Assembly (NCBI GenBank): GCA_028276785.1
Contig: JAPYVP010000001.1
Span: forward strand, 1 to 32,000
Direction: 5' to 3'
DNA: 32,000 bases
From: Candidatus Nanopusillus sp.
Lineage (GTDB): Archaea > Nanobdellota > Nanobdellia > Nanobdellales > Nanobdellaceae
A program made the position numbers and the translations under genes. A model generated the notes under the pieces. It searched no databases. It was not told where the DNA came from and saw only the letters and a list, made by a program, of their open reading frames with translations. This document shows, piece after piece, positions 9,647 through 30,524 of the stretch (position 1 is its first letter; each line of letters starts with the position of its first letter).

Positions 9647-10765
9647 ATGACCTCATCAGAAAAAATAACAATAAGTGTTTTAAAAGCAGATATAGGAAGT
9701 CTGGTTGGGAATTCGAATATTCCAGAAATATTTGAAGAAACAGCTTCAGATATACTAGATAAATATAAGGGAGAAAAAATATTTGATTATTTTGTATCTC
9801 ATGTAGGAGATGATTTGAATTTAATAATATTGCATAATAAAGGGGAAAATAATAGAGAAATACATCAAATAGCATTTGAAATATTTAAGAAAAATTCTGA
9901 AATTGCAAAAGATATGCATTTATATGGTGCTGGTGGAGATTTATTAAAAAATGAATTTACAGGTTCATTGATTGGAATGGGACCCGGAGTTGCTGAAATG
10001 GAATTTACATTGAGATCTTCAGAGCCAATAATTGTATTTGCTGCAGATAAAACAGAATCTGGAGCATTTAATTATCCTTTATTCCAAATGTTTGCAAACC
10101 CATTTAACACACCAGGTTTAGTAATTGATCCTGATATGAGACCCGGATTTAGATTTGAAGTGTGGGATTTATATAATCATAAAAGAATATATTTAAATTC
10201 TCCAGAGGAAATTTATGACTTATTATTATTAATTGGAACATCTGAAAGATTTGCTATAAAAAGAGTATATCCAAGGTCTGATAAATATCCAAATAATGAA
10301 CCTGTTGCTGTTTCTTCTACAGAAAGATTATATGAAGAAGCTGGTAGATATGCTGGAAAAGATGATCCAGTAATGATTGTAAGAGCGCAAAAAGGATTTC
10401 CTTCAGTGGGAGAAATATTGGAAGCTTTTTCATTTCCATATATGGTAAATGGATGGATGAGGGGATCATATTGGGGTCCTTTATTACCTGTAAGTTTAAA
10501 GAATGCAAGGGCAACAAGGTTTGATGGACCTCCAAGAGTAATTGCATTGGGATTTCAGGTGAAAAGAGATAAATTATATGGACCTGAAGATATGTTTGAT
10601 GATCCAGCATTTGATTATGTAAGAAATAAAGCATTGGAAATTGCAGATTATATTAGAAGACATGGTCCTTTTGAACCCCATAGGGTATCCCATGAAGATT
10701 TATTAACAACAACGGCAAAACCCATATTGGATAAATTAATTCAAAGGTTTGAAGATATAAAATAA
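9647..10765 (+). CDS. fbp: fructose-1,6-bisphosphate aldolase/phosphatase (class V FBPase)
   Basis: 372 aa. It is collinear with archaeal FBPA/P as I remember it: ITISVLKADIGSLVGNS, GPGVAEMEF, FANPFNTPGLVIDP, GKDDPVMIVR, MRGSYWGPLLPVS, ATRFDGPPRVIALGF and FDDPAFD. Confidence 0.95.
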   Translation: MTSSEKITISVLKADIGSLVGNSNIPEIFEETASDILDKYKGEKIFDYFVSHVGDDLNLIILHNKGENNREIHQIAFEIFKKNSEIAKDMHLYGAGGDLLKNEFTGSLIGMGPGVAEMEFTLRSSEPIIVFAADKTESGAFNYPLFQMFANPFNTPGLVIDPDMRPGFRFEVWDLYNHKRIYLNSPEEIYDLLLLIGTSERFAIKRVYPRSDKYPNNEPVAVSSTERLYEEAGRYAGKDDPVMIVRAQKGFPSVGEILEAFSFPYMVNGWMRGSYWGPLLPVSLKNARATRFDGPPRVIALGFQVKRDKLYGPEDMFDDPAFDYVRNKALEIADYIRRHGPFEPHRVSHEDLLTTTAKPILDKLIQRFEDIK

Positions 10766-15566: not shown

Positions 15567-16052
15567 TTATATCTTTGGTAGTATTAAATTTCCAAATTTT
15601 TCATATTTATTTAATTTAAAGAATAAACCAGATAAATAGGATAAATATGCATCATAAATGTCCTTATATTTAAATACTTTTGAAAAATATTGGTATTTTA
15701 ATTTTAATATTTTTTCCACCGCTCTTGGAAATGTTTCATATACTTTTATATCATTATCAATCTCCATTATTTTATTTTTTAATAAGTTAGCCCTTTCATA
15801 TAATAATTTCATTGATTTTAAAGATAATGGTAATGGTTTGAATCCATATTTATATAATAATCTTTCTTCTATCCTATATGGATATTCATAACTTAAAGGT
15901 GCATCAATAAATACATATTTAAATTTTTCTTTTTCTATTAAATTCAATATTTCATCATTTTTATATAATACCCCAAATATTGGTTTATTATTAAAGTAAA
16001 AATATCCGGTTCTATTATTTTCTTTTGCGGATAGATCTAAACCGAGTATCAT
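15567..16052 (-). CDS. predicted RNase H-fold nuclease (DUF429/COG2410-like, tentative)
   Basis: 161 aa. The N-terminal MILGLDLSAKENNRTGYFYF resembles the first beta-hairpin and acidic residue of RNase H-fold proteins, and FIDAPLS supplies a second acidic motif. The family call is tentative. Confidence 0.6.
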   Translation of the reverse strand: MILGLDLSAKENNRTGYFYFNNKPIFGVLYKNDEILNLIEKEKFKYVFIDAPLSYEYPYRIEERLLYKYGFKPLPLSLKSMKLLYERANLLKNKIMEIDNDIKVYETFPRAVEKILKLKYQYFSKVFKYKDIYDAYLSYLSGLFFKLNKYEKFGNLILPKI

Positions 16053-16672
16053 TCTCTATAAATAAATTTATATGAGGTATCATATATATCCTTTTCAAAA
16101 TTCATTTTATCTAAATAATAATTTAATATTACAATAACCTGTGACGAAAAATAATTAATATCCCCCAAAGAAATCTTTATTACAGCATTTTCTATCTTTT
16201 TCTTAATATCTTTTGGTATTCCTAAGAAATCTCCAATAATAAATACAGGATTTTCAATTTTTATATTTTCAATAAATTCCCCATCTTTATCCAATAAATA
16301 TATATTTTTTCCATTATTTTTATATTCTTTTAATAAATCAAAAAAATCAACTTTATCAACATATACACCTGGAAAAGGATTTCTAATATTTTTTTTATTA
16401 TATTTTTTCAATGATATTGATAATAATGTTGATATATCCTTTTTTGACCATGGTGTATTTATATCAGATTCTATCCTTATTAATCTGGGAGGAACGGGTT
16501 TTCCAGTTAAATATAAATCAAATCTAATATTTTTTCTCAACCCATTTGATACAAAAAAAGCATGTATAATTGAATTAATTGCTATGTCCAATCTCCCAGA
16601 ATAATATATATTTTTAAAATTTCCGTCAGTTCTTATAGTATTTGAATAAAAAATAAATATTCTCATAATCAA
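16049..16672 (-). CDS. trmY: tRNA (pseudouridine54-N1)-methyltransferase TrmY (SPOUT, DUF358)
   Basis: 207 aa. It matches Methanocaldococcus TrmY closely as I remember it: GRLDI, GKNIYLLDKDGE, ENPVFIIGDFLGIPKD and KISLGDINYFSSQVIVILNYYLDK. Its stop overlaps the start of the downstream gene through ATGA. Confidence 0.85.
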   Translation of the reverse strand: MIMRIFIFYSNTIRTDGNFKNIYYSGRLDIAINSIIHAFFVSNGLRKNIRFDLYLTGKPVPPRLIRIESDINTPWSKKDISTLLSISLKKYNKKNIRNPFPGVYVDKVDFFDLLKEYKNNGKNIYLLDKDGEFIENIKIENPVFIIGDFLGIPKDIKKKIENAVIKISLGDINYFSSQVIVILNYYLDKMNFEKDIYDTSYKFIYRE

Positions 16673-16718
16673 ATATTTAAATAAAACTTTATAAAAAATT
16701 AAATAATAATAAACTTTT

Positions 16719-19004
16719 ATGAAAAAAATAAAGCTATTTGCATTATTAACTTTGATATTTAATCTTTTTAATATATATTCGCAAAATTATTCATCAACAT
16801 TATTTAATATTCCAATAGATCCAATAAATATAAGTCAATTAAATCTGTATAATTTGGAACAAGGTTCTTATAGCCATTTTTATATTTTATATCCAGAATA
16901 CTATTATTATTATCCGGCAAATTCATCAAACCAGTATTTAAACATATATTTTAATTCATCAATTCCTCTAAATTTTTATATAATGGATCAACAAAATTAT
17001 CAAAATTTTAAAAGCAGTGGAAATTTTACTTCAATCTATCAGAACTATACAAATTATATAAACCAAAGTATAAACCTATCTTCAGGAAATTATTACATAA
17101 TAATTTATAATAACAATACACAAAATGCATCTTATTTTTTTATATATAGTTTGACAAATCAATCTGAAAAAAATATTTATTCTCCAATAGGAATTTCTGA
17201 TTATGGTATATATATTAACAATGGAAGTATTTATGGATATAATGTTAAAACCAATAAAGTTATTGGAGAAATTTATTTAGATAATTTTAGTTCATATGTT
17301 AATCCTTTATGTTCTAATAGCTTTTTAGGTGAAGATTCAGGTTCAATACAATTAAATGCGATTCTAGAATTAAGTAATGGCCAACATTATTGGCTACAGA
17401 ATGTTTTATTAATAAATAATACTGGTAGATATTTTATTTTTGTTAATAATATATGGAATTTTACATCTTTAAATTCTAATTTATCAAATAATTTAATTAA
17501 AGGTAATGGAATAATAAGTAAACATGATGATAAATATTTTTATGTATATGCAACTGATCATTTTTCTTTACAATATCCATTAAATGTATATTTAATAATT
17601 AATATTACTCAAAACAATTCTTATCCAGAAATACAATTTGGTTATAGTCTAGATGGACAAAACATAAATTGGTACGATAATGTTACATTATTAATTCCAT
17701 CAAATGGTAGTATAGTTATTTCTCCCAATTTTACAGGTTCTAGAAATATTAAAAATTTAGAATTGGTTATTGGTGGACCTGGAAATGGAGCTTGTATAGA
17801 TATAAAAAATATTAGTGGATTTTTGGGTTTATATTATTCTTATAAAAATAATGGAAGTTATTATCTTACTCCAAGTCCTTCAATATTTAATTATGGTTTT
17901 AATACTGCAGAATATTCTTCAAATATTAATGAGGACATAATATCGCAGGGATTTGTAAATTTATCTGTAGGACCTTTTTATCCAAAGTATTTAGGAAATG
18001 TAAATATTACAAACTATAATATATCTGTTTATTATTCTTACAATAATTCATACATAAATCATCAATATCCATTTGGGATAATTTTTAATGTAAATATTCC
18101 AATATATATTTATCAAAACAACACATTGTATGTATTAAATAATTTAACAATAAATGGGGTAAATTATAGTATAAATTATTCTCAGCAGTATGTAAATATA
18201 AGTCTGCTAGTAGATAATAATTATAATATCTCTACAAACTATATTGAATATTATTTAGTTATTATAAATAATAGCATTGGAATAAATTTTACAATTTCTG
18301 GAAATTATTTAAATGAAACACATTATAATAATACATATTATCTTTATGCAAAAGATCTATTGAATATATACTTAAATCAAATATATAATTTTGGAAATTA
18401 CCGATATTATTGTCCAAATAACATAACGTTAAATATAAATACTTCGAAAGTTGTTGAAATATCTGATTATTGTTATTTGCAGTATCAATTAAATATATTT
18501 TCACCATTTAATTATACAATAAACAATAATACATACTATGGAAATACTAGTTTTTATATAAATGCAAATAATAATGTAACTATATTAATAAACACAACCA
18601 ATTATATAAATAATTATGAAAGATTTTATTGCAATAAGAACAATATAACAATAAATGTATCCTCTCCAATAAATATTAATCTATCTAGCTATTGTATATA
18701 TCAATATTTAGTAAATATTAATACACCATTTCTAGTAAATATTTCCATAAATAATTCTATAAATACTTATGGAAATACTTCTATTTTTTTAAATAAAGGA
18801 ACTGTAATAAATATTTTACCAGCTAAGTATATTGAATCAGGATTCTTTTATGATACAATTTATTATGAAGATGGATATAATTTTATTGTAAATCAACCAT
18901 TAAATATTACTGTACAATTCAATAAGAAAGTTCAATATAATTATTTAAATATCGGGTTGTTGATTGGTGTAATAGTTGGAATAATAATATTTATTCTATA
19001 CTAA
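16719..19004 (+). CDS. membrane-anchored thermopsin-family (peptidase A5) surface glycoprotein
   Basis: 761 aa with a Sec-type signal MKKIKLFALLTLIFNLFNIYSQN. Roughly aa 153-405 is collinear with Sulfolobus thermopsin as I remember it: SPIGISDYGIY, SIQLNAILELSNGQHYWLQNV, FVNNIWNFTS, IKGNGII, ELVIGGPGNGA, LGLYYSY and FNYGFNTAEYS. Repeated Cys-pair modules follow, then a C-terminal TM helix LNIGLLIGVIVGIIIFILY. Sequon density is very high. Confidence 0.85.
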   Translation: MKKIKLFALLTLIFNLFNIYSQNYSSTLFNIPIDPINISQLNLYNLEQGSYSHFYILYPEYYYYYPANSSNQYLNIYFNSSIPLNFYIMDQQNYQNFKSSGNFTSIYQNYTNYINQSINLSSGNYYIIIYNNNTQNASYFFIYSLTNQSEKNIYSPIGISDYGIYINNGSIYGYNVKTNKVIGEIYLDNFSSYVNPLCSNSFLGEDSGSIQLNAILELSNGQHYWLQNVLLINNTGRYFIFVNNIWNFTSLNSNLSNNLIKGNGIISKHDDKYFYVYATDHFSLQYPLNVYLIINITQNNSYPEIQFGYSLDGQNINWYDNVTLLIPSNGSIVISPNFTGSRNIKNLELVIGGPGNGACIDIKNISGFLGLYYSYKNNGSYYLTPSPSIFNYGFNTAEYSSNINEDIISQGFVNLSVGPFYPKYLGNVNITNYNISVYYSYNNSYINHQYPFGIIFNVNIPIYIYQNNTLYVLNNLTINGVNYSINYSQQYVNISLLVDNNYNISTNYIEYYLVIINNSIGINFTISGNYLNETHYNNTYYLYAKDLLNIYLNQIYNFGNYRYYCPNNITLNINTSKVVEISDYCYLQYQLNIFSPFNYTINNNTYYGNTSFYINANNNVTILINTTNYINNYERFYCNKNNITINVSSPININLSSYCIYQYLVNINTPFLVNISINNSINTYGNTSIFLNKGTVINILPAKYIESGFFYDTIYYEDGYNFIVNQPLNITVQFNKKVQYNYLNIGLLIGVIVGIIIFILY

Positions 19005-22219: not shown

Positions 22220-22291
22220 TGCCACCGCCGGGATTTGAACCCGGGACCTCTACCTTACCAGGGTAGCGCTCTACCGCTGAGCTACGGTGGC
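22220..22291 (-). tRNA. tRNA-Thr (anticodon GGU), no intron
   Basis: The reverse complement folds as GCCACCG-TA-GCTC-AGCGGTA-GAGC-G-CTACC-CTGGTAA-GGTAG-AGGTC-CCGGG-TTCAAAT-CCCGG-CGGTGGC-A. Its first G is the last base of the TAG stop of the upstream gene. Confidence 0.9.
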
Positions 22292-23205
22292 TATTTTCCT
22301 ATCTTTTTTGATATAATATTTATATATTGTGGATTTATACTATAAATATATTCGTTATTATCTACTTCTCTTATTAATATACCTTGTTTATACATTTTAT
22401 TCAAATATTTTGATACAGTGTTTCTTGGAAGATTTAATATTCTTGATATATCCTTTGAAGACATTTTGTTTTTATATAATATCTCTAAGATCATTTTTTG
22501 TGTGTTAGACAATTTTATTTCATTTTCTAAATTCTTTATTTCTTTCAAATCTTTATTTATGTTATCTATTCCCCCTTCTAAAAGGTTACTTAATTCAATA
22601 AATATTTGCCTAACATTATTATTATTCTTTCTTATTAAATTTCTTAATATTCTTTCATCTAAATTTACCCTTCCTTTTAATTTTTTATTTATTAATTTTA
22701 ATATTTCATCTTCTGGAGGGAATTTCATTTCTATCTTTCTATATAGTCTATTTAAGAAAGATAGGGTAGCATTCATTATTTGCGGAGATGGTTGAATTAA
22801 CATTATTGAATAAACAATCCTATTATCATATAAATATTTTAGTTTTTTAGATACATCCTCTGGAAAATTATAATATTCATCCAATATCAATACTATGGGT
22901 AGCTTATTTTCAAATTTAAAGAATAAAAACTTATTATATTTATTTTTTTCTATTATTTCTTCCAAATCTTTATCTCTTTCATATTCTCCATTTATATATA
23001 TTACATTATATCTATCTGATAGATCTCTTTTAATTTTAAATGCTAAAGAAGTTTTTCCAGAACCAATTGGTCCATATAATAGAAATATTTCGCCATTTAT
23101 TATAGAATCTTTTACTTTTTTTATTATATCATCTACCCCAACCAAATCTTCATTTGGTCTTATATCTAAAGGATTTTTAGAGAAACCGTATTTTTTCCAC
23201 CACAT
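22291..23205 (-). CDS. AAA+ ATPase with C-terminal winged-helix DNA-binding domain (miniature Orc1/Cdc6-like or archaeal-ATPase-like architecture)
   Basis: 304 aa. Walker A is LYGPIGSGKTS and Walker B is VLILDEY. The C-terminal segment is LSNTQKMILEILYKNKMSSKDISRILNLPRNTVSKYLNKMYKQGILIRE (HTH plus wing). Confidence 0.75.
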   Translation of the reverse strand: MWWKKYGFSKNPLDIRPNEDLVGVDDIIKKVKDSIINGEIFLLYGPIGSGKTSLAFKIKRDLSDRYNVIYINGEYERDKDLEEIIEKNKYNKFLFFKFENKLPIVLILDEYYNFPEDVSKKLKYLYDNRIVYSIMLIQPSPQIMNATLSFLNRLYRKIEMKFPPEDEILKLINKKLKGRVNLDERILRNLIRKNNNNVRQIFIELSNLLEGGIDNINKDLKEIKNLENEIKLSNTQKMILEILYKNKMSSKDISRILNLPRNTVSKYLNKMYKQGILIREVDNNEYIYSINPQYINIISKKIGK

Positions 23206-23206
23206 C

Positions 23207-24853
23207 TTATTTTATATTATTTAATAATTCTATATAAGTTGATATTGACCATAGTTGATGCAAGGCCCCTGCTGGTTTTAATTCATATGCACTAGATCTT
23301 TCTGGTAATGTTCCTATCATTTTTATTAATCTTTCGTTAGATTTCATAATACTATTTATTATATCCCAATATTTTTCCTTATTTAAATTATATAGATCCA
23401 TAGCAGCAATGTTATTTATAAAAATCCATGAATCTCCATTATGCATTGATTTTCCTTCATTTCTAAAATAATTATCTTCATTGCTATATGGGATAAATTC
23501 TTTATCAAATATAGATAAACTACTAATTCCTCCCCATTTTAGATATAAATGTGTTAATGAATAATCAAAAATATTTTCCCATTCATAATTTGAAAAAATC
23601 TTTGGATAAAAGTAATAAGATAAAAATACATTACATCTTATCTTCTTATTTTTTATATCATCATATAATGAAGAATCTGATAAATAATTTTTTCTAATAG
23701 AATTCTTTATTTTTTCTAATTTTTCTTTATACTCATCTTTTTTTGTATAATTATATAAATTATCATATGCATTTGCCATCAAAAATTGTATTTCTATTGG
23801 ATAAATTCTATTTAATGTGTCCATCCATGTCTCATTTGGATATGCTTTAAACAAAAATAATTTTTCATCTAAATAGTTTTCTTCAAATATATTTAATTTT
23901 TCAATAATATTATTTACTAATTTATCAAATATTTCTTTTTCAAATAAATCTTTAAATTGAAATAATCTGAAAATATACAACCCTATTCCATCGGAATTTC
24001 CAATATTTTCATTTTTTATATTCTTTAATCTTCCATCTGGCAAAAAATAATTTGAATATTCAATTAACTTATTCTTTACTATATCTTTATTGATATAGTA
24101 TAATCCTCCCAATGAAATTAGAACATCTCTACTCCATTCCTGAAAATACCATGGAAAACCTGCAGAAATGTTATTATCATAAATAAAAGATAATAACCCA
24201 TTTTCAATTAGATTTTTTCCATTCAAATTATCCTTATCATTTTTATATATTATTTCTAATTCTTTTGCATAAAAAGAAAATGGTAAATATATATATCTTT
24301 CAAATGGTGGAGATTTTCTATATAAGTCATAATTATAATTAACTTTTATCCATTTATTTAATTCTTGATAAACTTCAAATCTTTTTATTATTACTTCATA
24401 GTTTAAATCCCCTTTATTAAATTTTATTTTCACGTAATCATTATTTTTTTCAATATTATATATCCTTCCCCATTCATCTATATCATACAAATATCTTATA
24501 TCAAAATAAACATTTAATGTGGAATATTTATTTGTTTTATATATTAATTTATTATCTATTAATTTATATTCTTCCCATCCATCTTTATATATTATCTTTA
24601 AATCATTATAATCTTTTAATATTATCTTTTCAATTTCATTATAGTTTATATCTCTATTTTCTATTTTTTCTAATATTTTGATAAAATTGTTGTTATAATA
24701 TTGTAATAAACCAAAATATCTACTGTTATATAGTAAAGGTAAAAACAAAAAAGAACCTTTATTATATATAACAGCATAATCAAAGTTTTCTAATTCAATT
24801 TCTTTTTCCATACAAATAATTTCATTAAAAGATTTATAATTATTTTTATTCAT
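23207..24853 (-). CDS. glycogen debranching enzyme, archaeal type (amylo-alpha-1,6-glucosidase, GDE_C domain)
   Basis: 548 aa. The motif AGFPWYFQEWSRDVLISLGGL corresponds to the PWF..WGRD..I.L.G signature of GDE_C. The C-terminal HNGDSW and HQLWSIS fit the (alpha/alpha)6 family. Confidence 0.8.
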   Translation of the reverse strand: MNKNNYKSFNEIICMEKEIELENFDYAVIYNKGSFLFLPLLYNSRYFGLLQYYNNNFIKILEKIENRDINYNEIEKIILKDYNDLKIIYKDGWEEYKLIDNKLIYKTNKYSTLNVYFDIRYLYDIDEWGRIYNIEKNNDYVKIKFNKGDLNYEVIIKRFEVYQELNKWIKVNYNYDLYRKSPPFERYIYLPFSFYAKELEIIYKNDKDNLNGKNLIENGLLSFIYDNNISAGFPWYFQEWSRDVLISLGGLYYINKDIVKNKLIEYSNYFLPDGRLKNIKNENIGNSDGIGLYIFRLFQFKDLFEKEIFDKLVNNIIEKLNIFEENYLDEKLFLFKAYPNETWMDTLNRIYPIEIQFLMANAYDNLYNYTKKDEYKEKLEKIKNSIRKNYLSDSSLYDDIKNKKIRCNVFLSYYFYPKIFSNYEWENIFDYSLTHLYLKWGGISSLSIFDKEFIPYSNEDNYFRNEGKSMHNGDSWIFINNIAAMDLYNLNKEKYWDIINSIMKSNERLIKMIGTLPERSSAYELKPAGALHQLWSISTYIELLNNIK

Positions 24854-24862
24854 TTTTTAATT

Positions 24863-26059
24863 ATGAAAATATTATTTTTATCTTGGGGAGTATTTCCTCA
24901 GAAAGGTGGTGGATTAGAAAAAGTAACATATTATTATTTGAAATATCTCGATTATTTTAATAATAATGTTTATTTATTTATTTTAAATCTGACTGATGAT
25001 GTAAAATCTTTCTGGAATAATAAATTAAAGAACTCAAAAATTTTTGGATTAGATATGAAAGTATATCAATCGTACATAGATTATTTTAAATATGAATCTT
25101 TTACTTTATATAAGAGGAAAATTATAGACTATAAGAAGGCAGTAATTGAATATAAAGATAAAATAATAGATTTATTGAAAAAAATGAAATTAGATTTTGA
25201 TATAATATATGCATATGATTGGTTGACTGCTTTAGCAGGAATAGAAATAAAGAAGATATATAAAAAGCCATTGGTTGTTCATTTTCATTCTCTAGTATAT
25301 GACAGAGTTGGAGGAAATCCGGACGCATTAAAATATTTATATGATTATGATTATGGAATAGAATTGGAAGCATGTAAATACGCGGATAAAATTATAGTAG
25401 TAAGTAAGAGAGAAAAAGATATATTGGTAAAATATTATAATTGTGATGAGAAGAAGATTGATGTGATATATAATGCTCCAGATGACGATTTTAATATAAG
25501 AGAAAAAATAAATAGTAAAATAAAAGAAAAATATAAAATAGTATTATATCTCGGAAGAATGACAATGCATAAAGGCCCAGATTATTTATTAAAAGCAGCA
25601 AAAAAAGTTTTGGAAAAAAGAAAAGATGTATTATTTATATTCGCAGGAACTGGAGAAATGTTAGAATATTTAATAAAAATGGCTGCAGATTTAAATATAT
25701 CAAAAAATGTAATATTTACTGGATGGGTTGATGATGATTTAGCAGAATATTTATATTCAATAGCAGATATATTTGTTTTACCTTCTGTATCAGAACCCTT
25801 TGGTTTAACCCCATTTGAAGCTTTAAAATATAAAGATTTTATTATAATATCAAAACAAACAGGGGTATATGAAGTATTGAAAAATGCGTTAGCAGTTGAT
25901 TTTTGGGATATAAATAAAATGGCAGATTATATATTAGCATTATTATATTACCCAAAATTGGGAGAATATGAGATAAAGTTATGTTTGGATGATATAAAAA
26001 ATTTATCTTGGAAAAATTCTGTAGAAAAATTAATTTCTATTTTCAATAGTTTGATCTAA
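24863..26059 (+). CDS. GT-B glycosyltransferase (GT4/GT5-like), probable glycogen/alpha-glucan synthase
   Basis: 398 aa. Motifs are MKILFLSWGVFPQKGGGLEKV, AYDWLTALAG, VVHFHSL, and the E-x7-E region PSVSEPFGLTPFEALKY, in a glycogen gene context. Confidence 0.75.
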   Translation: MKILFLSWGVFPQKGGGLEKVTYYYLKYLDYFNNNVYLFILNLTDDVKSFWNNKLKNSKIFGLDMKVYQSYIDYFKYESFTLYKRKIIDYKKAVIEYKDKIIDLLKKMKLDFDIIYAYDWLTALAGIEIKKIYKKPLVVHFHSLVYDRVGGNPDALKYLYDYDYGIELEACKYADKIIVVSKREKDILVKYYNCDEKKIDVIYNAPDDDFNIREKINSKIKEKYKIVLYLGRMTMHKGPDYLLKAAKKVLEKRKDVLFIFAGTGEMLEYLIKMAADLNISKNVIFTGWVDDDLAEYLYSIADIFVLPSVSEPFGLTPFEALKYKDFIIISKQTGVYEVLKNALAVDFWDINKMADYILALLYYPKLGEYEIKLCLDDIKNLSWKNSVEKLISIFNSLI

Positions 26060-27205
26060 TTCTATATCTCTTAAAATGTTCATATATGATATAAAAGAAT
26101 CATAAGGAGTTGCAAAAGCTTCTTCCCTAAAATATTTGTGTACATCACCATCGCTATTATATTTTAGACTCATATAATAGAAATTATCGGAAGTTGATAA
26201 ATATCTCAATATATTTAATGTTTTTTCGTCATTTTTAAACTTTCTATATAATTCTCTTAAATAATCTAAAGCTTCTCTTTGTATACTATCTCCAATCCAT
26301 GCAGATAGATCTCTTTCAATATCTGCCCATGATATTAGTTCAGGTATATCTAATTCATCTTTATAATTAAATTCTTCAGTAGCTTCAGTTATATTATATG
26401 TTTCAAAATATTTCTCTTTTCCAATATATTCAAATAGCTTGTTCCAAAATTCAAATATTCCAGATTCTTTCCATATATGTTCTCCTATTGTTTCAAAATC
26501 CATAAATATGTTTATTATATCTCCAGGAGTATTCTTTAACCATAAATAATATTTATCTGCGGTTAATGGATATTCTGACCAATACTTATTTGTAAATCTA
26601 AATCCTATATCATCAGACAATCTATAATTTCTTAATAATAGCCTTAAATTATTTATTTTTAATTTATATACATAATTTGGACTTCTATTTCCCAAAATTT
26701 TTTCAGTCCCTTCAGTTAATGCCACTTTATATCCCAAAGAATATACAATTTCCCCAATTTCATTATTAAATACAAGCTCAAAATTCCTAAAGCTTCTAGA
26801 TTTATAATTAAATATTTCCTTTATTTTTTTTCTATGTAACTTTATTTGATTAATAAATTCATCTTTATCAATTAAATATGCCAATGAATGATAATAAGTT
26901 TCTGATACAATTTCTACATTTCCTGTATCTACTAATTTTTTCCATAGTTCTAGAATTTCTGGATGATATAATTCTAATTGTTCAATTAACGTTCCAGAAA
27001 TTGAAAATGATACTTTTATATCGTATTTTATGATATTATCGTATATCATTTCCAATGCTGGTTTATAACATTTATATACAACTCTATCCAATATCCTTTT
27101 ATTTAAATCATCGTTGAAATAATTTTTTGATCCTATATCAAAAAAAGAATAATATCTTATTCTTCTCGGTTGATGAGCATGGAAATAAAATACAATACCG
27201 GTCAT
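26030..27205 (-). CDS. glycoside hydrolase family 57 protein (alpha-amylase/branching-enzyme family)
   Basis: 391 aa. The N-terminal IVFYFHAHQPRR is the GH57 HxHQP signature. FMDFETIGEH fits the catalytic region. The 3' end overlaps the convergent GT gene by 30 nt. Confidence 0.85.
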   Translation of the reverse strand: MTGIVFYFHAHQPRRIRYYSFFDIGSKNYFNDDLNKRILDRVVYKCYKPALEMIYDNIIKYDIKVSFSISGTLIEQLELYHPEILELWKKLVDTGNVEIVSETYYHSLAYLIDKDEFINQIKLHRKKIKEIFNYKSRSFRNFELVFNNEIGEIVYSLGYKVALTEGTEKILGNRSPNYVYKLKINNLRLLLRNYRLSDDIGFRFTNKYWSEYPLTADKYYLWLKNTPGDIINIFMDFETIGEHIWKESGIFEFWNKLFEYIGKEKYFETYNITEATEEFNYKDELDIPELISWADIERDLSAWIGDSIQREALDYLRELYRKFKNDEKTLNILRYLSTSDNFYYMSLKYNSDGDVHKYFREEAFATPYDSFISYMNILRDIELDQTIENRN

Positions 27206-27241
27206 AAATATTTTTTAAAGATATAAAATATAAAATTTAAT

Positions 27242-27556
27242 ATGATTGAAGTTGATAATGAAAAAGAAGCATTTATCACTATTGATGGACAAAAATTATA
27301 TGGTCTTCAAGATCTATTAATTTGGTTATATAATGCAGATCAGGACAAATTTAATTATCATAAAGATCATTTTCTAGAATGGATAAAAAATGCATTAAAA
27401 GAGGAAGTTTTATATGAAAAGATAAAGGAAGCAAAAGATAAGGATGAATATATAAAAATTATAGGAAATTTCTTAAAAGCTCACGAAATATATGTAAAGA
27501 AAAAGCTTTCAAAAGAAGAGGCTGAAGTAAAATTTTCAAAATTATTAGGATTATGA
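27242..27556 (+). CDS. small soluble hypothetical protein, first gene of the ParA/GT3 operon
   Basis: 104 aa: MIEVDNEKEAFITIDGQKLYGLQDLLIWLYNADQDKFNYHKDHFLEWIKNAL... It is Lys/Glu-rich and overlaps the next gene through ATGA. It may resemble small proteins found beside GH57 or glycosyltransferase genes elsewhere, but I cannot verify this. Confidence 0.6.
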   Translation: MIEVDNEKEAFITIDGQKLYGLQDLLIWLYNADQDKFNYHKDHFLEWIKNALKEEVLYEKIKEAKDKDEYIKIIGNFLKAHEIYVKKKLSKEEAEVKFSKLLGL

Positions 27557-28215
27557 TAATATCTTTTCTATCATTAAAGGGAGGAGTTGGAAAAACCACA
27601 TTGGCAAATAATCTTGCAGCATATTTAAAGAAGGAATATAATTATAAAGTATTAATAATAGATACAAACGGAATATATTCTTCAAATTTAATATTTTTAA
27701 ATAATGAAAAATTATTTGGAAATAAAGTATATCAAGGAATAAAGGTATTGCCATATTTTCATTTAAAAATTATAGATAATTTAGATTTTAGTATTAATGA
27801 TTTAAATTATTTGAAAAGATATTATGATGTAATTATCTTTGATGTACTTCCAAACATAAATTATATACTAAGTATTGAAAAAATATCAGACATAAATTTC
27901 TTAGTAATAAATCCTGATTTCTATTCTTTATATGTAAATAAAAAATTATATGATCTTTTAGATAAAAATAAGGTTAAGATAATATTAAATAAATATGATA
28001 AGAGTATTGAAATAGACTTTATAGAAGATGTATTTAAGAAAGAAATATATACAGTTATTCCAATAATTAAAGACTTTATTAATTATCAATTTCAATATCA
28101 ACCCATTGCATTTTATAATGAAAGATCAAAAGCATTAAAATATATAGATGAGCTGGCATATTGTATAACTGGTAATAAAAGGAAGAGGAGTATATTTGAT
28201 ATTATATTTAGATGA
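27553..28215 (+). CDS. ParA/MinD-family P-loop ATPase
   Basis: 220 aa. It has the deviant Walker A SLKGGVGKTTLANNLA and a Walker B-like VIIFDV. ATGA overlaps occur at both ends. Confidence 0.85.
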   Translation: MIISFLSLKGGVGKTTLANNLAAYLKKEYNYKVLIIDTNGIYSSNLIFLNNEKLFGNKVYQGIKVLPYFHLKIIDNLDFSINDLNYLKRYYDVIIFDVLPNINYILSIEKISDINFLVINPDFYSLYVNKKLYDLLDKNKVKIILNKYDKSIEIDFIEDVFKKEIYTVIPIIKDFINYQFQYQPIAFYNERSKALKYIDELAYCITGNKRKRSIFDIIFR

Positions 28216-29831
28216 TATTGTTTGAACAATCTTGGGAAGTATGCAATAAAGTCGGGGGAATATATACTGTATTGTATACTAAGGCAAAGTATATAAAAGA
28301 AAAGTATAATGATAAATATTTTTTGATAGGTCCATATAAAAATAGTTCGGAATTTATTGAATTAGATCCTCCAAGTTATATAAAAGAAATAAATTATCAA
28401 TTAGATGGGATTAAAGTACACTATGGATATTGGAATATTGAATCAAAACCAAACGTATTCTTAATAGAATTTGATGAATTTTTCAATAAGGAAAGAAATT
28501 TATGGAAATATAAATATTGGGAGTGGTATAAAATAGATTCTTTAAATTCGGACTTTACTTTTGATGAACCACTTTTATGGTCTGTTGCTGTTGGTATATT
28601 TTTAGAAAAGTTAGATAAATATTTTAATGAGAAAAAAATATTACATGCGCATGAATGGTTGTCTGGAGGTACAATATTATATATAAAGAAAAATAATTTA
28701 AATTATAAGACAATATTAACGATTCATGGAACAGTAATTGGAAGAACTTTATCTGAAAAAAATGTAAATATGGAGAAAGCATTGGATATTATAGATCCAG
28801 ATAAAGATTCTTATAGATTAGGAATAAATTCAAAGTATCAATTGGAAAAGCAAGCAATATTAAATTCTGATATATTTACAGTGGTATCTGATAATTTGGG
28901 AGAGGAAGCATATAAAATATATAAGAGAAAACCAGATTATATAACGTATAATTATATAAATGTAAAGGAAAAAGATTTATTTAATTATTATAAAATTTCA
29001 AAGAAATGGATGGATGAATTTTTGACCTGGTATTTTTACCCATATTATGATCTACCAGAAAAATATTTATTGATATATACAATTGGTAGATATGAGCCAT
29101 ATAATAAGGGTCTAGATCTATTTATTGATTTATTAAAATATTTAGATGAAAATAAATTAAATACTATTACATTCATTTTTGTTCCTTACAATATTAAAGG
29201 ACAAAATAATGATATAATTAGATCTTATAAAGAGTATATTAAATTGAAGGAAAATATAGAAGAAAATATACATTTAATCATTAGATCTTTATATAATGGA
29301 AGAAATATATTAGATAAATTAGACAGAATAAAGAATAAGAATCCACCAATATGTACTCATGATGTGGAAAATAATATTATAATTGAGAAATTAAGAGAAA
29401 ATAATTTAAACAATGATAAAAATAACTATGTAAAAGTTATATATGTTCCAGTTTATCTTGGAAATGATGTATTATTTAGTTTGGATCTGGAATATATATT
29501 ACCAGTATTTGATTTTGGCATATTTTTATCAAGGTATGAACCTTACGGGTATACACCTTTAGAAGCATTGAATAATTTTGTTCCGATTGTTTTATCCAAT
29601 AAAACGGGATTTTATAGAAATTTAATAAGTAAAAATATAAATCATGAATATATAATTAGTGTAGATCCAAATAATTTGGATAAAGAATTTATATATAATA
29701 AATTTTTACAATATTATAATTTAGATTTATATGATAAAATGGAAATAAAAAAGCAAATGTATGATATATCTAAGAAATTTGATTGGAAAAATAATATAAA
29801 CGAATATGTAAATATTTATGACTCTATGTAA
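28212..29831 (+). CDS. glycogen synthase, GT3 (animal/fungal-type) family
   Basis: 539 aa. It is collinear with human/yeast glycogen synthase as I remember it: LFEQSWEVCNKVGGIYTVLYTKAK, YFLIGPY, HAHEWLSG, TIHGTVIGRTL, IGRYEPYNKGLDLF, PPICTHD, VKVIYVPVYL and SRYEPYGYTPLEA. It lacks the eukaryotic phospho-regulatory tails. Confidence 0.92.
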   Translation: MILFEQSWEVCNKVGGIYTVLYTKAKYIKEKYNDKYFLIGPYKNSSEFIELDPPSYIKEINYQLDGIKVHYGYWNIESKPNVFLIEFDEFFNKERNLWKYKYWEWYKIDSLNSDFTFDEPLLWSVAVGIFLEKLDKYFNEKKILHAHEWLSGGTILYIKKNNLNYKTILTIHGTVIGRTLSEKNVNMEKALDIIDPDKDSYRLGINSKYQLEKQAILNSDIFTVVSDNLGEEAYKIYKRKPDYITYNYINVKEKDLFNYYKISKKWMDEFLTWYFYPYYDLPEKYLLIYTIGRYEPYNKGLDLFIDLLKYLDENKLNTITFIFVPYNIKGQNNDIIRSYKEYIKLKENIEENIHLIIRSLYNGRNILDKLDRIKNKNPPICTHDVENNIIIEKLRENNLNNDKNNYVKVIYVPVYLGNDVLFSLDLEYILPVFDFGIFLSRYEPYGYTPLEALNNFVPIVLSNKTGFYRNLISKNINHEYIISVDPNNLDKEFIYNKFLQYYNLDLYDKMEIKKQMYDISKKFDWKNNINEYVNIYDSM

Positions 29832-29864: not shown

Positions 29865-30524
29865 ATGGCATCATTTGCAGATTTTATAATAAACCTAGTA
29901 AATATATTGGGAATAAACTTAATATTTGTTTTTCTATTCTATTTTGGAGTATTGTATTTTTTAATAAAATTTTTGCTAGATAGTATTGTAGGAAAAGATG
30001 AAAAAGGAGGAAAAAAAGATATAAATAATATATTAGCGTTTATTATATCAACTTCTGCATCATTTTTATTAACAACATTTACTGGTTTTGTTTTATATAC
30101 ACAATATTTTGTAGCTTTTATAGTTTCAAAGATTCTAGTATTATTTTTCTTTATACTTATAACAGCTTTCTTAACAAATGGTAAAATATTCGAATTAATG
30201 GAAAAAGGAATGTTTTCTGGTGAAGGAAAACGAGGTAGTGCCAGACTTATACCACCAATAATGCTAATAATATTTATTATTGTATTTGCTTTATTATCAA
30301 TGTATTATGCATATCAAGATTATTTTTTATCAATAACCTTTGGTACATCTCCACAAGCACAAATTTATACAATAACTTTTAATCCTTATATATTATTTGC
30401 AATGATGTTCTTTATTTTAATAGGAATATTTTTGATATTCTCTAGTACTGGTTTTAGTTCTGAAGGTGGAAAAGGATCTGAAAAACAGGAAGCAAAAGGT
30501 GGGGATAAAGGAAAATCACAATAA
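29865..30524 (+). CDS. hypothetical multi-pass membrane protein with Gly/Lys-rich tail
   Basis: 219 aa with about five hydrophobic helices and the C-terminal tail SSEGGKGSEKQEAKGGDKGKSQ. No family recognised. Confidence 0.65.
   Translation: MASFADFIINLVNILGINLIFVFLFYFGVLYFLIKFLLDSIVGKDEKGGKKDINNILAFIISTSASFLLTTFTGFVLYTQYFVAFIVSKILVLFFFILITAFLTNGKIFELMEKGMFSGEGKRGSARLIPPIMLIIFIIVFALLSMYYAYQDYFLSITFGTSPQAQIYTITFNPYILFAMMFFILIGIFLIFSSTGFSSEGGKGSEKQEAKGGDKGKSQ

Follow-up and report, generated by a model that had tools for sequence, protein, structure and literature searches.

ParA/MinD ATPases are known for positioning DNA, carboxysomes, arrays of chemoreceptors, and flagella. In the McdAB system of carboxysomes, in the PpfA system, and in the MinD4 system of Haloferax, a deviant Walker A ATPase is encoded beside a small partner and the genes for its presumed cargo. 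The closest analogue of the system that we consider here, however, is BcsR-BcsQ-BcsA, which serves cellulose secretion in enterobacteria and whose genes encode, in this order, a small protein, a MinD-like ATPase, and a glucan synthase. BcsR and BcsQ form stable ATP sandwich dimers, have weak ATPase activity, and are required for the level and the function of the synthase (PMC7840130). We analyzed a stretch of 32,000 nucleotides from Candidatus Nanopusillus sp. (assembly GCA_028276785.1, contig JAPYVP010000001.1, positions 1 to 32,000; hereafter the window), in which the same order is found for a small protein of 104 residues, a MinD/ParA-type ATPase of 220 residues, and a glycogen synthase of family GT3. 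We refer to these three genes and their products as the trio. Our favored reading, to which we give about as much belief as disbelief and which comes from sequence comparison, is that the ATPase is a specialized DPANN MinD-like paralogue that was recruited to the glycogen cluster, where it would organize or regulate glycogen synthesis together with the GT3 synthase and a small partner containing a single repeat of the DUF5752 domain. We infer that it would do so by positioning, by membrane tethering, or by control of the synthase. The support for the proposed role of the trio comes solely from comparative genomics.

The trio and BcsR-BcsQ-BcsA have the same logic and gene order, whereas every component family is different. 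BcsR is a 7-kDa partner of BcsQ (a MinD-like SIMIBI protein) and is unrelated to DUF5752. BcsQ lacks the signature lysine that the trio ATPase has, and its switch-I aspartate is replaced by cysteine (Cys39) or serine, whereas the trio ATPase has asparagine (Asn39). BcsA is a membrane-embedded GT2 exporter of beta-glucan, whereas GT3 is a glycosyltransferase for intracellular alpha-glucan, and none of the cyclic di-GMP components of the Bcs system is present in the glycogen cluster. Compared with the ParA/MinD positioning systems, the trio ATPase differs in its substituted catalytic aspartate and in its cargo, which would be glycogen or the synthase. McdA (6NON/6NOO) is a weaker match to the trio ATPase than MinD is, and an McdB-like partner is disordered, whereas the DUF5752 partner is predicted to be a folded helical domain. 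The basic-hydrophobic C-terminal tail of the trio ATPase recalls the membrane-targeting helices of MinD-type proteins. SegA and SegB likewise combine a ParA-like ATPase of 220 residues with an overlapping small partner gene, but the SegB partner family, its charge, and its gene order differ from those of the trio, and SegA keeps a DxD switch I. An initial annotation of this DNA, made from the sequence alone, had stated that it knew of no described system linking a ParA-like ATPase to glycogen metabolism. The literature that we searched likewise has no account of either a ParA/MinD ATPase or a DUF5752 protein that acts on glycogen, but BcsR-BcsQ-BcsA is a close precedent with a glucan synthase.

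The same annotation had described three genes chained by ATGA start/stop overlaps at 27553-27556 and 28212-28215, and both the coordinates of the open reading frames and the overlaps are exact; the lengths of the frames, the KGGVGKTT Walker motif, and the match of the synthase to PF05693 agree as well. These overlaps alone are no evidence of linkage, because overlapping genes are common in this tightly packed genome (window GC content, 24.4%): 8 of the 19 same-strand neighbor pairs in the window overlap, 5 of them by exactly 4 nucleotides. Translational coupling was dropped as stand-alone evidence for this reason, and the evidence must therefore come from comparison with other genomes. Copies of the ATPase that are 91 to 99% identical occur in Nanopusillus acidilobi, N. 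massiliensis, and Nanobsidianus stetteri, and orthologues down to 46% identity occur in Nanobdella aerobiophila and other Nanopusillaceae. We examined the Nanopusillaceae-type loci L001, L003, L005, L006-8, L009, L010, L015/16, and L018-21, and in each of these nine distinct types of related locus the genes run in the order small protein, ATPase, and GT3 synthase, with overlaps of 1 or 4 nucleotides. Retention of the trio and its overlaps in nine locus types exceeds chance. In the most diverged of these loci (L015/16), the small protein is 42% identical and the trio is intact, and the region downstream is rearranged, with an AI-2E-family transporter and a 255-residue KaiC-like ATPase inserted between the GT3 synthase and the membrane protein that otherwise follows it (L015/L016 8667-10357).

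The linkage is conserved not only in the Nanopusillaceae but also in two further kinds of cluster, so the neighborhood check, which could have refuted the proposal of the initial annotation, did not do so. In Woesearchaeota-type loci (L039/L043/L049), the gene order is GH57, DUF5752, long DUF5752, ATPase, and GT3, with the ATPase directly upstream of the synthase. In L134/L137, the order is GT4/5, GH57, DUF5752, ATPase, DUF5752, GH15 glucoamylase, GAPDH, and PGK, with overlapping starts. The ATPases of L039/L043/L049 belong to a DPANN MinD-like family of ~262 residues, which is also the next-best match group of the window ATPase. This family and archaeal MinD (1G3Q/1ION, TIGR01969) are its best matches in sequence and structure. 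The DxN switch I and an LNK motif are common to the trio ATPase and the ~262-residue family, whereas the trio ATPase is ~40 residues shorter through loss of a loop and of the PKRQEINREIFYE extension at the C terminus, and it lies among glycogen genes instead of housekeeping ones.

A metagenome scan with the ~262-residue family, with the Walker A region trimmed, gave 42 members (L098-L139). Forty of the sampled members lie in housekeeping surroundings, with neither glycogen genes nor DUF5752 in the vicinity, the remaining two being L134 and L137. P0093, the database protein most closely related to the L049-type ATPases, likewise has a housekeeping context and is not glycogen linked; we rejected a glycogen link for the family as a whole on these grounds. 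The family (L098-L139 and L178) has a DxN switch I and a C-terminal motif PKRQEINREIFYE..F, and its neighbors encode S15-like, RecJ/DHH-like, Bud32-like, and eIF2-alpha-like proteins, SRP54, HIT, and Dph2. Among the loci sampled, MinD-like genes that adjoin DUF5752 occur only inside glycogen clusters, and none of the three glycogen-linked groups has the PKRQEINREIFYE extension found at the C terminus of the housekeeping members. The L039/L043/L049 and L134/L137 groups fall into different subclades of a rough neighbor-joining tree. Given the 40 housekeeping members and the placement of these two groups in different subclades, the ATPase entered or stayed in the glycogen cluster more than once. 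Three layouts from a family that otherwise lies elsewhere would mean repeated recruitment or selective retention, for which it is difficult to account if the ATPase has no functional connection to the cluster, and these comparisons make a functional link of the ATPase to glycogen likely.

Two CobQ/CobB/MinD/ParA ATPases of arCOG00589 are listed in the gene table of N. acidilobi (Wurch et al. 2016). One of them, Nps_00380, lies in the glycogen cluster, and the other, Nps_03280, adjoins the diphthamide synthase Dph2 in a context like that of P0093 (Wurch et al. 2016). The cluster copy is thus an extra paralogue, and the keeping of two copies in a genome of ~0.6 Mb argues that the cluster copy has a role of its own. 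In the Phycisphaerae bacterium OY776568.1 (L084), a gene at 15859-17118, 6 kb downstream of GT3, encodes an unrelated 419-residue ParA with a C-terminal AMPK1_CBM/CBM48 glycogen-binding module (PF16561, 1.3e-13); no second case was found among 37 bacterial loci. This single fusion hints, from its domain matches, that a connection between ParA and glycogen may not be confined to one lineage.

A scan with a GT3 alignment, using one genome per species, gave 80 loci, which we annotated with local profiles. It recovered the GT3 orthologues of the Nanopusillaceae along with DPANN and bacterial relatives. The recurrent archaeal layout is GT4/5, GH57, one or two DUF5752 genes, GT3, GalT-like, a variable stretch, and GDE_C; the form with GalT-like/DUF4921 between GT3 and GDE_C is common to L022-L058, L061, and L075. 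Outside the Nanopusillaceae, 22 of the 39 archaeal loci have DUF5752 no more than 8 kb from GT3, as against none of the 37 bacterial loci. Every locus with a complete GH57 gene has DUF5752, nearly always directly after GH57 and even where the GH57 block diverges from GT3, and where DUF5752 is missing, the locus is mostly truncated at the end of a contig. The glycogen cluster of DPANN archaea thus has DUF5752 genes as a constant component. Two of them are often present, one short and basic (isoelectric point [pI] 9 to 11) and one longer and acidic (pI 4 to 5, up to 675 residues), and in L011 a DUF5752 gene overlaps the GT3 start with no ATPase between. Since DUF5752 follows GH57 and mostly does so without ParA, the primary tie of the small protein is to the glycogen enzymes and not to ParA. 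The proposal that the 104-residue protein is the adaptor of the ATPase survives in part: it is a component of the glycogen cluster and may bridge to the ATPase, but a dedicated adaptor it is not. The GT3 clusters of 10 metagenome-assembled genomes titled "uncultured Methanosarcinales archaeon" (L022, L025, L028, L030, L036, L039, L041, L045, L049, and L056) match the Woesearchaeota ones in layout and identity, and the taxonomic labels of these genomes may be unreliable.

Several observations weigh against a dedicated role of the ATPase in glycogen synthesis. Most DPANN glycogen clusters carry DUF5752 without ParA, and the ATPase is therefore accessory, DUF5752 needing no ATPase nearby. The region from the debranching enzyme to TFB, including SBDS and proteasome alpha, is syntenic across the Nanopusillaceae, so that synteny within the family is weak evidence, with L015/16 as the exception, and overlapping starts are as frequent in this genome as noted above. 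The Nanopusillaceae ATPases form a long branch drawn to the outgroup in the neighbor-joining tree, which does not place a common origin with the other glycogen-linked ATPases. The C-terminal tail of the ATPase, KRKRSIFDIIFR, has a basic-then-hydrophobic pattern that is conserved in orthologues, but the hydrophobic moment of the window tail is 0.49, equal to the shuffled mean; significance is reached in L003, L010, and L015 only, and the membrane-targeting sequences of true MinD proteins do no better by this measure. The proteome of N. acidilobi, which does show the GT3, GT4/5, and debranching enzymes, contained no detected ATPase or small protein (Wurch et al. 2016). Cells of 100 to 300 nm, moreover, may have little need for active positioning.

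The same synteny, overlaps, and missing proteomic signal of the ATPase also fit a generic housekeeping MinD-like ATPase with a role in cell division or organization that came to lie beside glycogen genes through genome compaction, and the scatter of its nearest family among S15-like, RecJ-like, Bud32-like, SRP54, and Dph2 genes fits such an ATPase too. We nonetheless regard this explanation as unlikely, though not far-fetched: it does not account for three layouts in which the ATPase adjoins DUF5752 within glycogen clusters, for the retention of a second paralogue with a housekeeping context in a genome of 0.6 Mb, or for the loss of the PKRQEINREIFYE extension common to the glycogen-linked copies.

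The small protein is no orphan, contrary to the initial annotation, which had left it as an unknown. By itself the window protein has no match in Pfam or NCBIfam, but 9 of its 10 orthologues match PF19027 (DUF5752; best E value, 1.2e-5), and a profile of the orthologues retrieves proteins annotated with PF19027. An exhaustive search with this profile gave 4861 clusters at 50% identity, 2949 of them at E values of 1e-10 or below, and the motifs F..DG..L..L and HVN..NDF..WI..LA are common to the 104-residue protein and the family. An AlphaFold2 model of the window protein (predicted local distance difference test [pLDDT] score, 88.5) has a short beta-hairpin followed by helices, and its top match in the PDB is 4CSO, OrfY of Thermoproteus tenax. 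This fold match is weak (probability 0.69) and became convincing because of a later profile-to-PDB search, in which a profile of twelve two-repeat DUF5752 proteins matched 4CSO at an E value of 3.2e-7; OrfY is therefore a solved representative of DUF5752. These profile matches assign the 104-residue protein to DUF5752, the OrfY family, as a member with one repeat. OrfY itself, the only solved DUF5752 protein, has two repeats in 216 residues, and the one-repeat protein of the trio is related to it by profile and fold. The orfY gene lies in the treT trehalose-synthase operon, which would make it a further DUF5752 gene next to an alpha-glucosyl transferase; OrfY is not known to have an ATPase partner.

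DUF5752 repeats are elsewhere fused to P-loop ATPases of the KaiC-like (PF06745) and HerA/DUF87-like kinds (P0160, P0170, P0173, and P0205). These fusions fit the role of an ATPase partner for the domain, and the acidic small protein beside a basic ATPase fits such a role for the small protein. Some of the fusions are 1300 to 1970 residues long and have CarboxypepD_reg repeats too, and many proteins of 390 to 470 residues consist of DUF5752 and ~250 residues without a Pfam match. The KaiC-like ATPase inserted in L015/16 may be viewed beside these fusions.

The depositors of 4CSO labeled OrfY a transcription factor, which raises the question of whether the small protein and the ATPase are a transcriptional control pair, an OrfY-like DNA-binding regulator of sugar-storage genes modulated by the ATPase in the manner of FleN-FleQ or of Soj at promoters. 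The small gene heads its unit beside the 36-bp divergent spacer, MinD-like ATPases are known as antiactivators, and FleN-FleQ structures are among the fold matches of the trio ATPase. We nevertheless judge a control pair to be distinctly unlikely. The small proteins of the Nanopusillaceae are acidic (pI 4.6 to 5.9 across the family, versus 9.0 for the ATPase), no recognizable DNA-binding fold was found among the PDB matches of the small-protein model, DUF5752 forms fusions with KaiC-like and HerA-like ATPases and is often present as two or three repeats, and the cluster already has another candidate regulator, an AAA+/winged-helix protein, on its flank. In the literature that we searched, we found no published account of a function of DUF5752 or OrfY.

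The sequence and the predicted structure of the 220-residue protein place it in the ParA/MinD deviant Walker A SIMIBI superfamily. The KGGVGKTT motif, a deviant Walker A with the signature lysine, occupies residues 9 to 16, and the protein has weak Pfam matches to CbiA, AAA_31, and ParA, its Pfam and NCBIfam matches all scoring below the family cutoffs. The signature lysine (K9) and K14 do not vary among the orthologues or within the wider family, D37 is conserved in the ATPase orthologues, and D97, the Walker B aspartate, is invariant in them. Foldseek searches with an AlphaFold2 model (pLDDT 90.7) matched MinD, ParA, Soj, FlhG, FleN, SegA, and BcsQ about equally (E values, 6e-11 to 1e-8; template modeling [TM] scores, 0.65 to 0.79). 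The aspartate of switch I that activates water is D40 in MinD and D44 in Soj and has been mutated to trap ATP dimers. The trio ATPase has Asn39 in its place, which aligns with the aspartate mutated to alanine in Aquifex MinD (4V02) and which is nearly invariant throughout the DPANN MinD-like family. Slow, partner-gated hydrolysis of ATP would be a reasonable inference by analogy with these proteins.

Within the superfamily, several assignments can be rejected on the scores of curated models. MinD proper was ruled out, since the ATPase scores 43.2 bits against archaeal MinD TIGR01969 (cutoff, 201.75), with no orthologue better than an E value of 3e-14, and 27.5 bits against bacterial MinD TIGR01968 (cutoff, 212.9). 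BcsQ membership was ruled out by a score of 35.4 bits against TIGR03371 (cutoff, 157.85), a match that covers the N-terminal 39 residues only. Descent from the Mrp/NBP35 Fe-S carriers, which had been named beforehand as a check, was also excluded: the CxxC motif is absent from the ATPase, which has a single cysteine in the whole protein and is therefore not Mrp/NBP35, the score against NF041136 is 22 bits versus a cutoff of 450, and the PF10609 match is confined to the P-loop (residues 2 to 39). A bacterial tyrosine kinase (BY-kinase) was ruled out because the protein reads IIDTNG instead of the Walker A' motif DxDxR and has no C-terminal tyrosine cluster; the BY-kinase models TIGR01007 and TIGR03018 match its P-loop only (E value, ~1e-3). 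Among the database copies of the ATPase (P0002, P0006, P0014, and others), many bear the JGI name "cellulose biosynthesis protein BcsQ" and one bears the name "sporulation initiation inhibitor Soj"; both names are unsupported, because the cutoffs of the curated models are not reached.

A SegAB- or ParAB-like pair for chromosome or plasmid segregation, lying in the cluster by chance and with the small protein as its DNA-binding partner, is very improbable, for although Sulfolobus SegA, also of 220 residues, is the nearest PDB entry by single sequence (E value, 6.5e-6) and a small partner gene here likewise overlaps a ParA-like gene, sequence profiles rank the Pyrococcus MinDs 1ION and 1G3Q above SegA as the nearest solved proteins, the score against the ParA_partition model NF041546 is 44.9 bits versus a cutoff of 180, the partner belongs to DUF5752, which goes with glycogen clusters even where these have no ParA, this partner is acidic and has no ParB- or SegB-like match or fold, and a small gene in first position is the reverse of the segAB order. 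The partition ParA/SegA assignment was ruled out by that score and that partner, so that clear orthology to a chromosome-segregation lineage, the outcome named beforehand as refuting, did not emerge, and the SegAB analogy was rejected as the principal explanation on partner family, charge, and distribution.

If the ATPase is a recruited MinD-like paralogue, as we favor, it would be coexpressed with the one-repeat DUF5752 protein and the GT3 synthase. Binding of ATP would drive the ATPase into a sandwich dimer, which would probably be long-lived because the switch-I aspartate is asparagine, as in the hydrolysis-trapped MinD mutants and in BcsQ with its cysteine or serine. The basic dimer would engage the acidic DUF5752 protein by physical contact and, through this partner or directly, may organize the machinery of glycogen synthesis, be it the GT3 enzyme or a granule in the making. 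The dimer may act at a surface, possibly the membrane, which its basic-hydrophobic C-terminal tail could bind. In an alternative form of the mechanism, the pair would support the GT3 synthase in the way that BcsRQ supports its own synthase. The outcome would be control over the place and time of glycogen synthesis and over the sharing of glycogen among daughter cells.

A wider proposal, possible but held only tentatively, is that these proteins constitute an undescribed glycogen-organizing system of DPANN archaea, in which the ATPase and OrfY/DUF5752 proteins tether, position, or partition granules or switch GT3, with DUF5752 as a widespread partner class. If so, DUF5752 would link alpha-glucan and trehalose glycosyltransferases to ParA-like, KaiC-like, and HerA-like P-loop ATPases, and a glycogen-dedicated member would add a storage polysaccharide to the cargos of ParA/MinD ATPases, in archaea with among the smallest cells and genomes. 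It would also give a testable role to the 4CSO structure and to DUF5752, a family of thousands of protein clusters. A 2024 review of alpha-glucan enzymes describes archaeal glycogen metabolism and its regulation as largely unexplored, the archaeal GT3 synthases as uncharacterized, with an activity that has never been measured, and their priming without glycogenin as unexplained, and its figure of archaeal glycogen clusters draws genes deemed unrelated as white arrows (PMC11046441). Nearly every DPANN cluster has DUF5752 genes along with GH57, GT4/5, and GT3, which makes them obvious candidates for the missing accessory factors, and a DUF5752-ATPase system, if real, could bear on how GT3 functions without glycogenin. 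In Nanopusillus, stored glycogen is the proposed source of energy for cells no longer attached to their host (PMC4935971), and the way in which it is controlled and inherited may thus be important to the symbiosis.

The features of the locus are collected in Table 1.

Table 1. Genes and spacer of the glycogen locus in the window, with the trio first
Feature	Position	Strand	Description
Small acidic protein gene	27242..27556	+	104 residues, pI 5.6, single-repeat DUF5752/OrfY
MinD/ParA-type ATPase gene	27553..28215	+	220 residues, pI 9.0, deviant Walker A
GT3-family glycogen synthase gene	28212..29831	+	539 residues, PF05693
Putative membrane protein gene, conserved	29865..30524	+	219 residues, directly 3' of GT3
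AT-rich spacer, 36 bp	27206..27241	.	between divergent GH57 and small-protein genes
GH57 alpha-glucan-active enzyme gene	26030..27205	-	391 residues, PF03065 at 3.4e-73
GT4/GT5-like glycosyltransferase gene, glycogen-synthase-like	24863..26059	+	398 residues, Pfam
GDE_C amylo-alpha-1,6-glucosidase-like debranching enzyme gene	23207..24853	-	548 residues, PF06202 at 1e-18
AAA_14 ATPase + C-terminal winged-helix (ArsR/MarR/TrmB-like) gene	22291-23205	-	304 residues

The debranching, GT4/5, and GH57 genes together with the trio are the glycogen cluster of a Nanopusillus-like nanoarchaeon. The GT3 protein matches PF05693 (Glycogen_syn) over residues 5 to 475 with an E value of 5.2e-74 and 250.4 bits (gathering cutoff, 27), and its N. 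acidilobi orthologue, Nps_00385, is the synthase present in the proteome (gene table, Wurch et al. 2016). The GT4/GT5-like protein matches Glycos_transf_1, Glyco_transf_4, and Glyco_transf_5 in Pfam, and its matches to glgA-like models of NCBIfam are below cutoff. The AT-rich spacer is presumed to be a shared promoter region for the GH57 and small-protein genes. The 219-residue membrane protein has no match in Pfam or NCBIfam; its gene directly follows GT3 only in the Nanopusillaceae, overlaps the GT3 stop in L005, and may be the fourth gene of the transcription unit of the trio. For its orthologue in N. acidilobi, Nps_00390, the gene table gives 5 transmembrane segments (Wurch et al. 2016), and the SBDS and proteasome alpha genes come after it on the map of the window.

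The gene for the 304-residue AAA_14/winged-helix protein lies 1 nucleotide from the debranching-enzyme gene and is found there also in L001, L003, and L015; its domains make it a candidate regulator of the glycogen cluster. Elsewhere in the window, at 9647-10765 on the forward strand (+), lies a gene for a class V fructose-1,6-bisphosphatase (PF01950, 2.5e-154), which is consistent with a gluconeogenic supply of glycogen in this symbiont.

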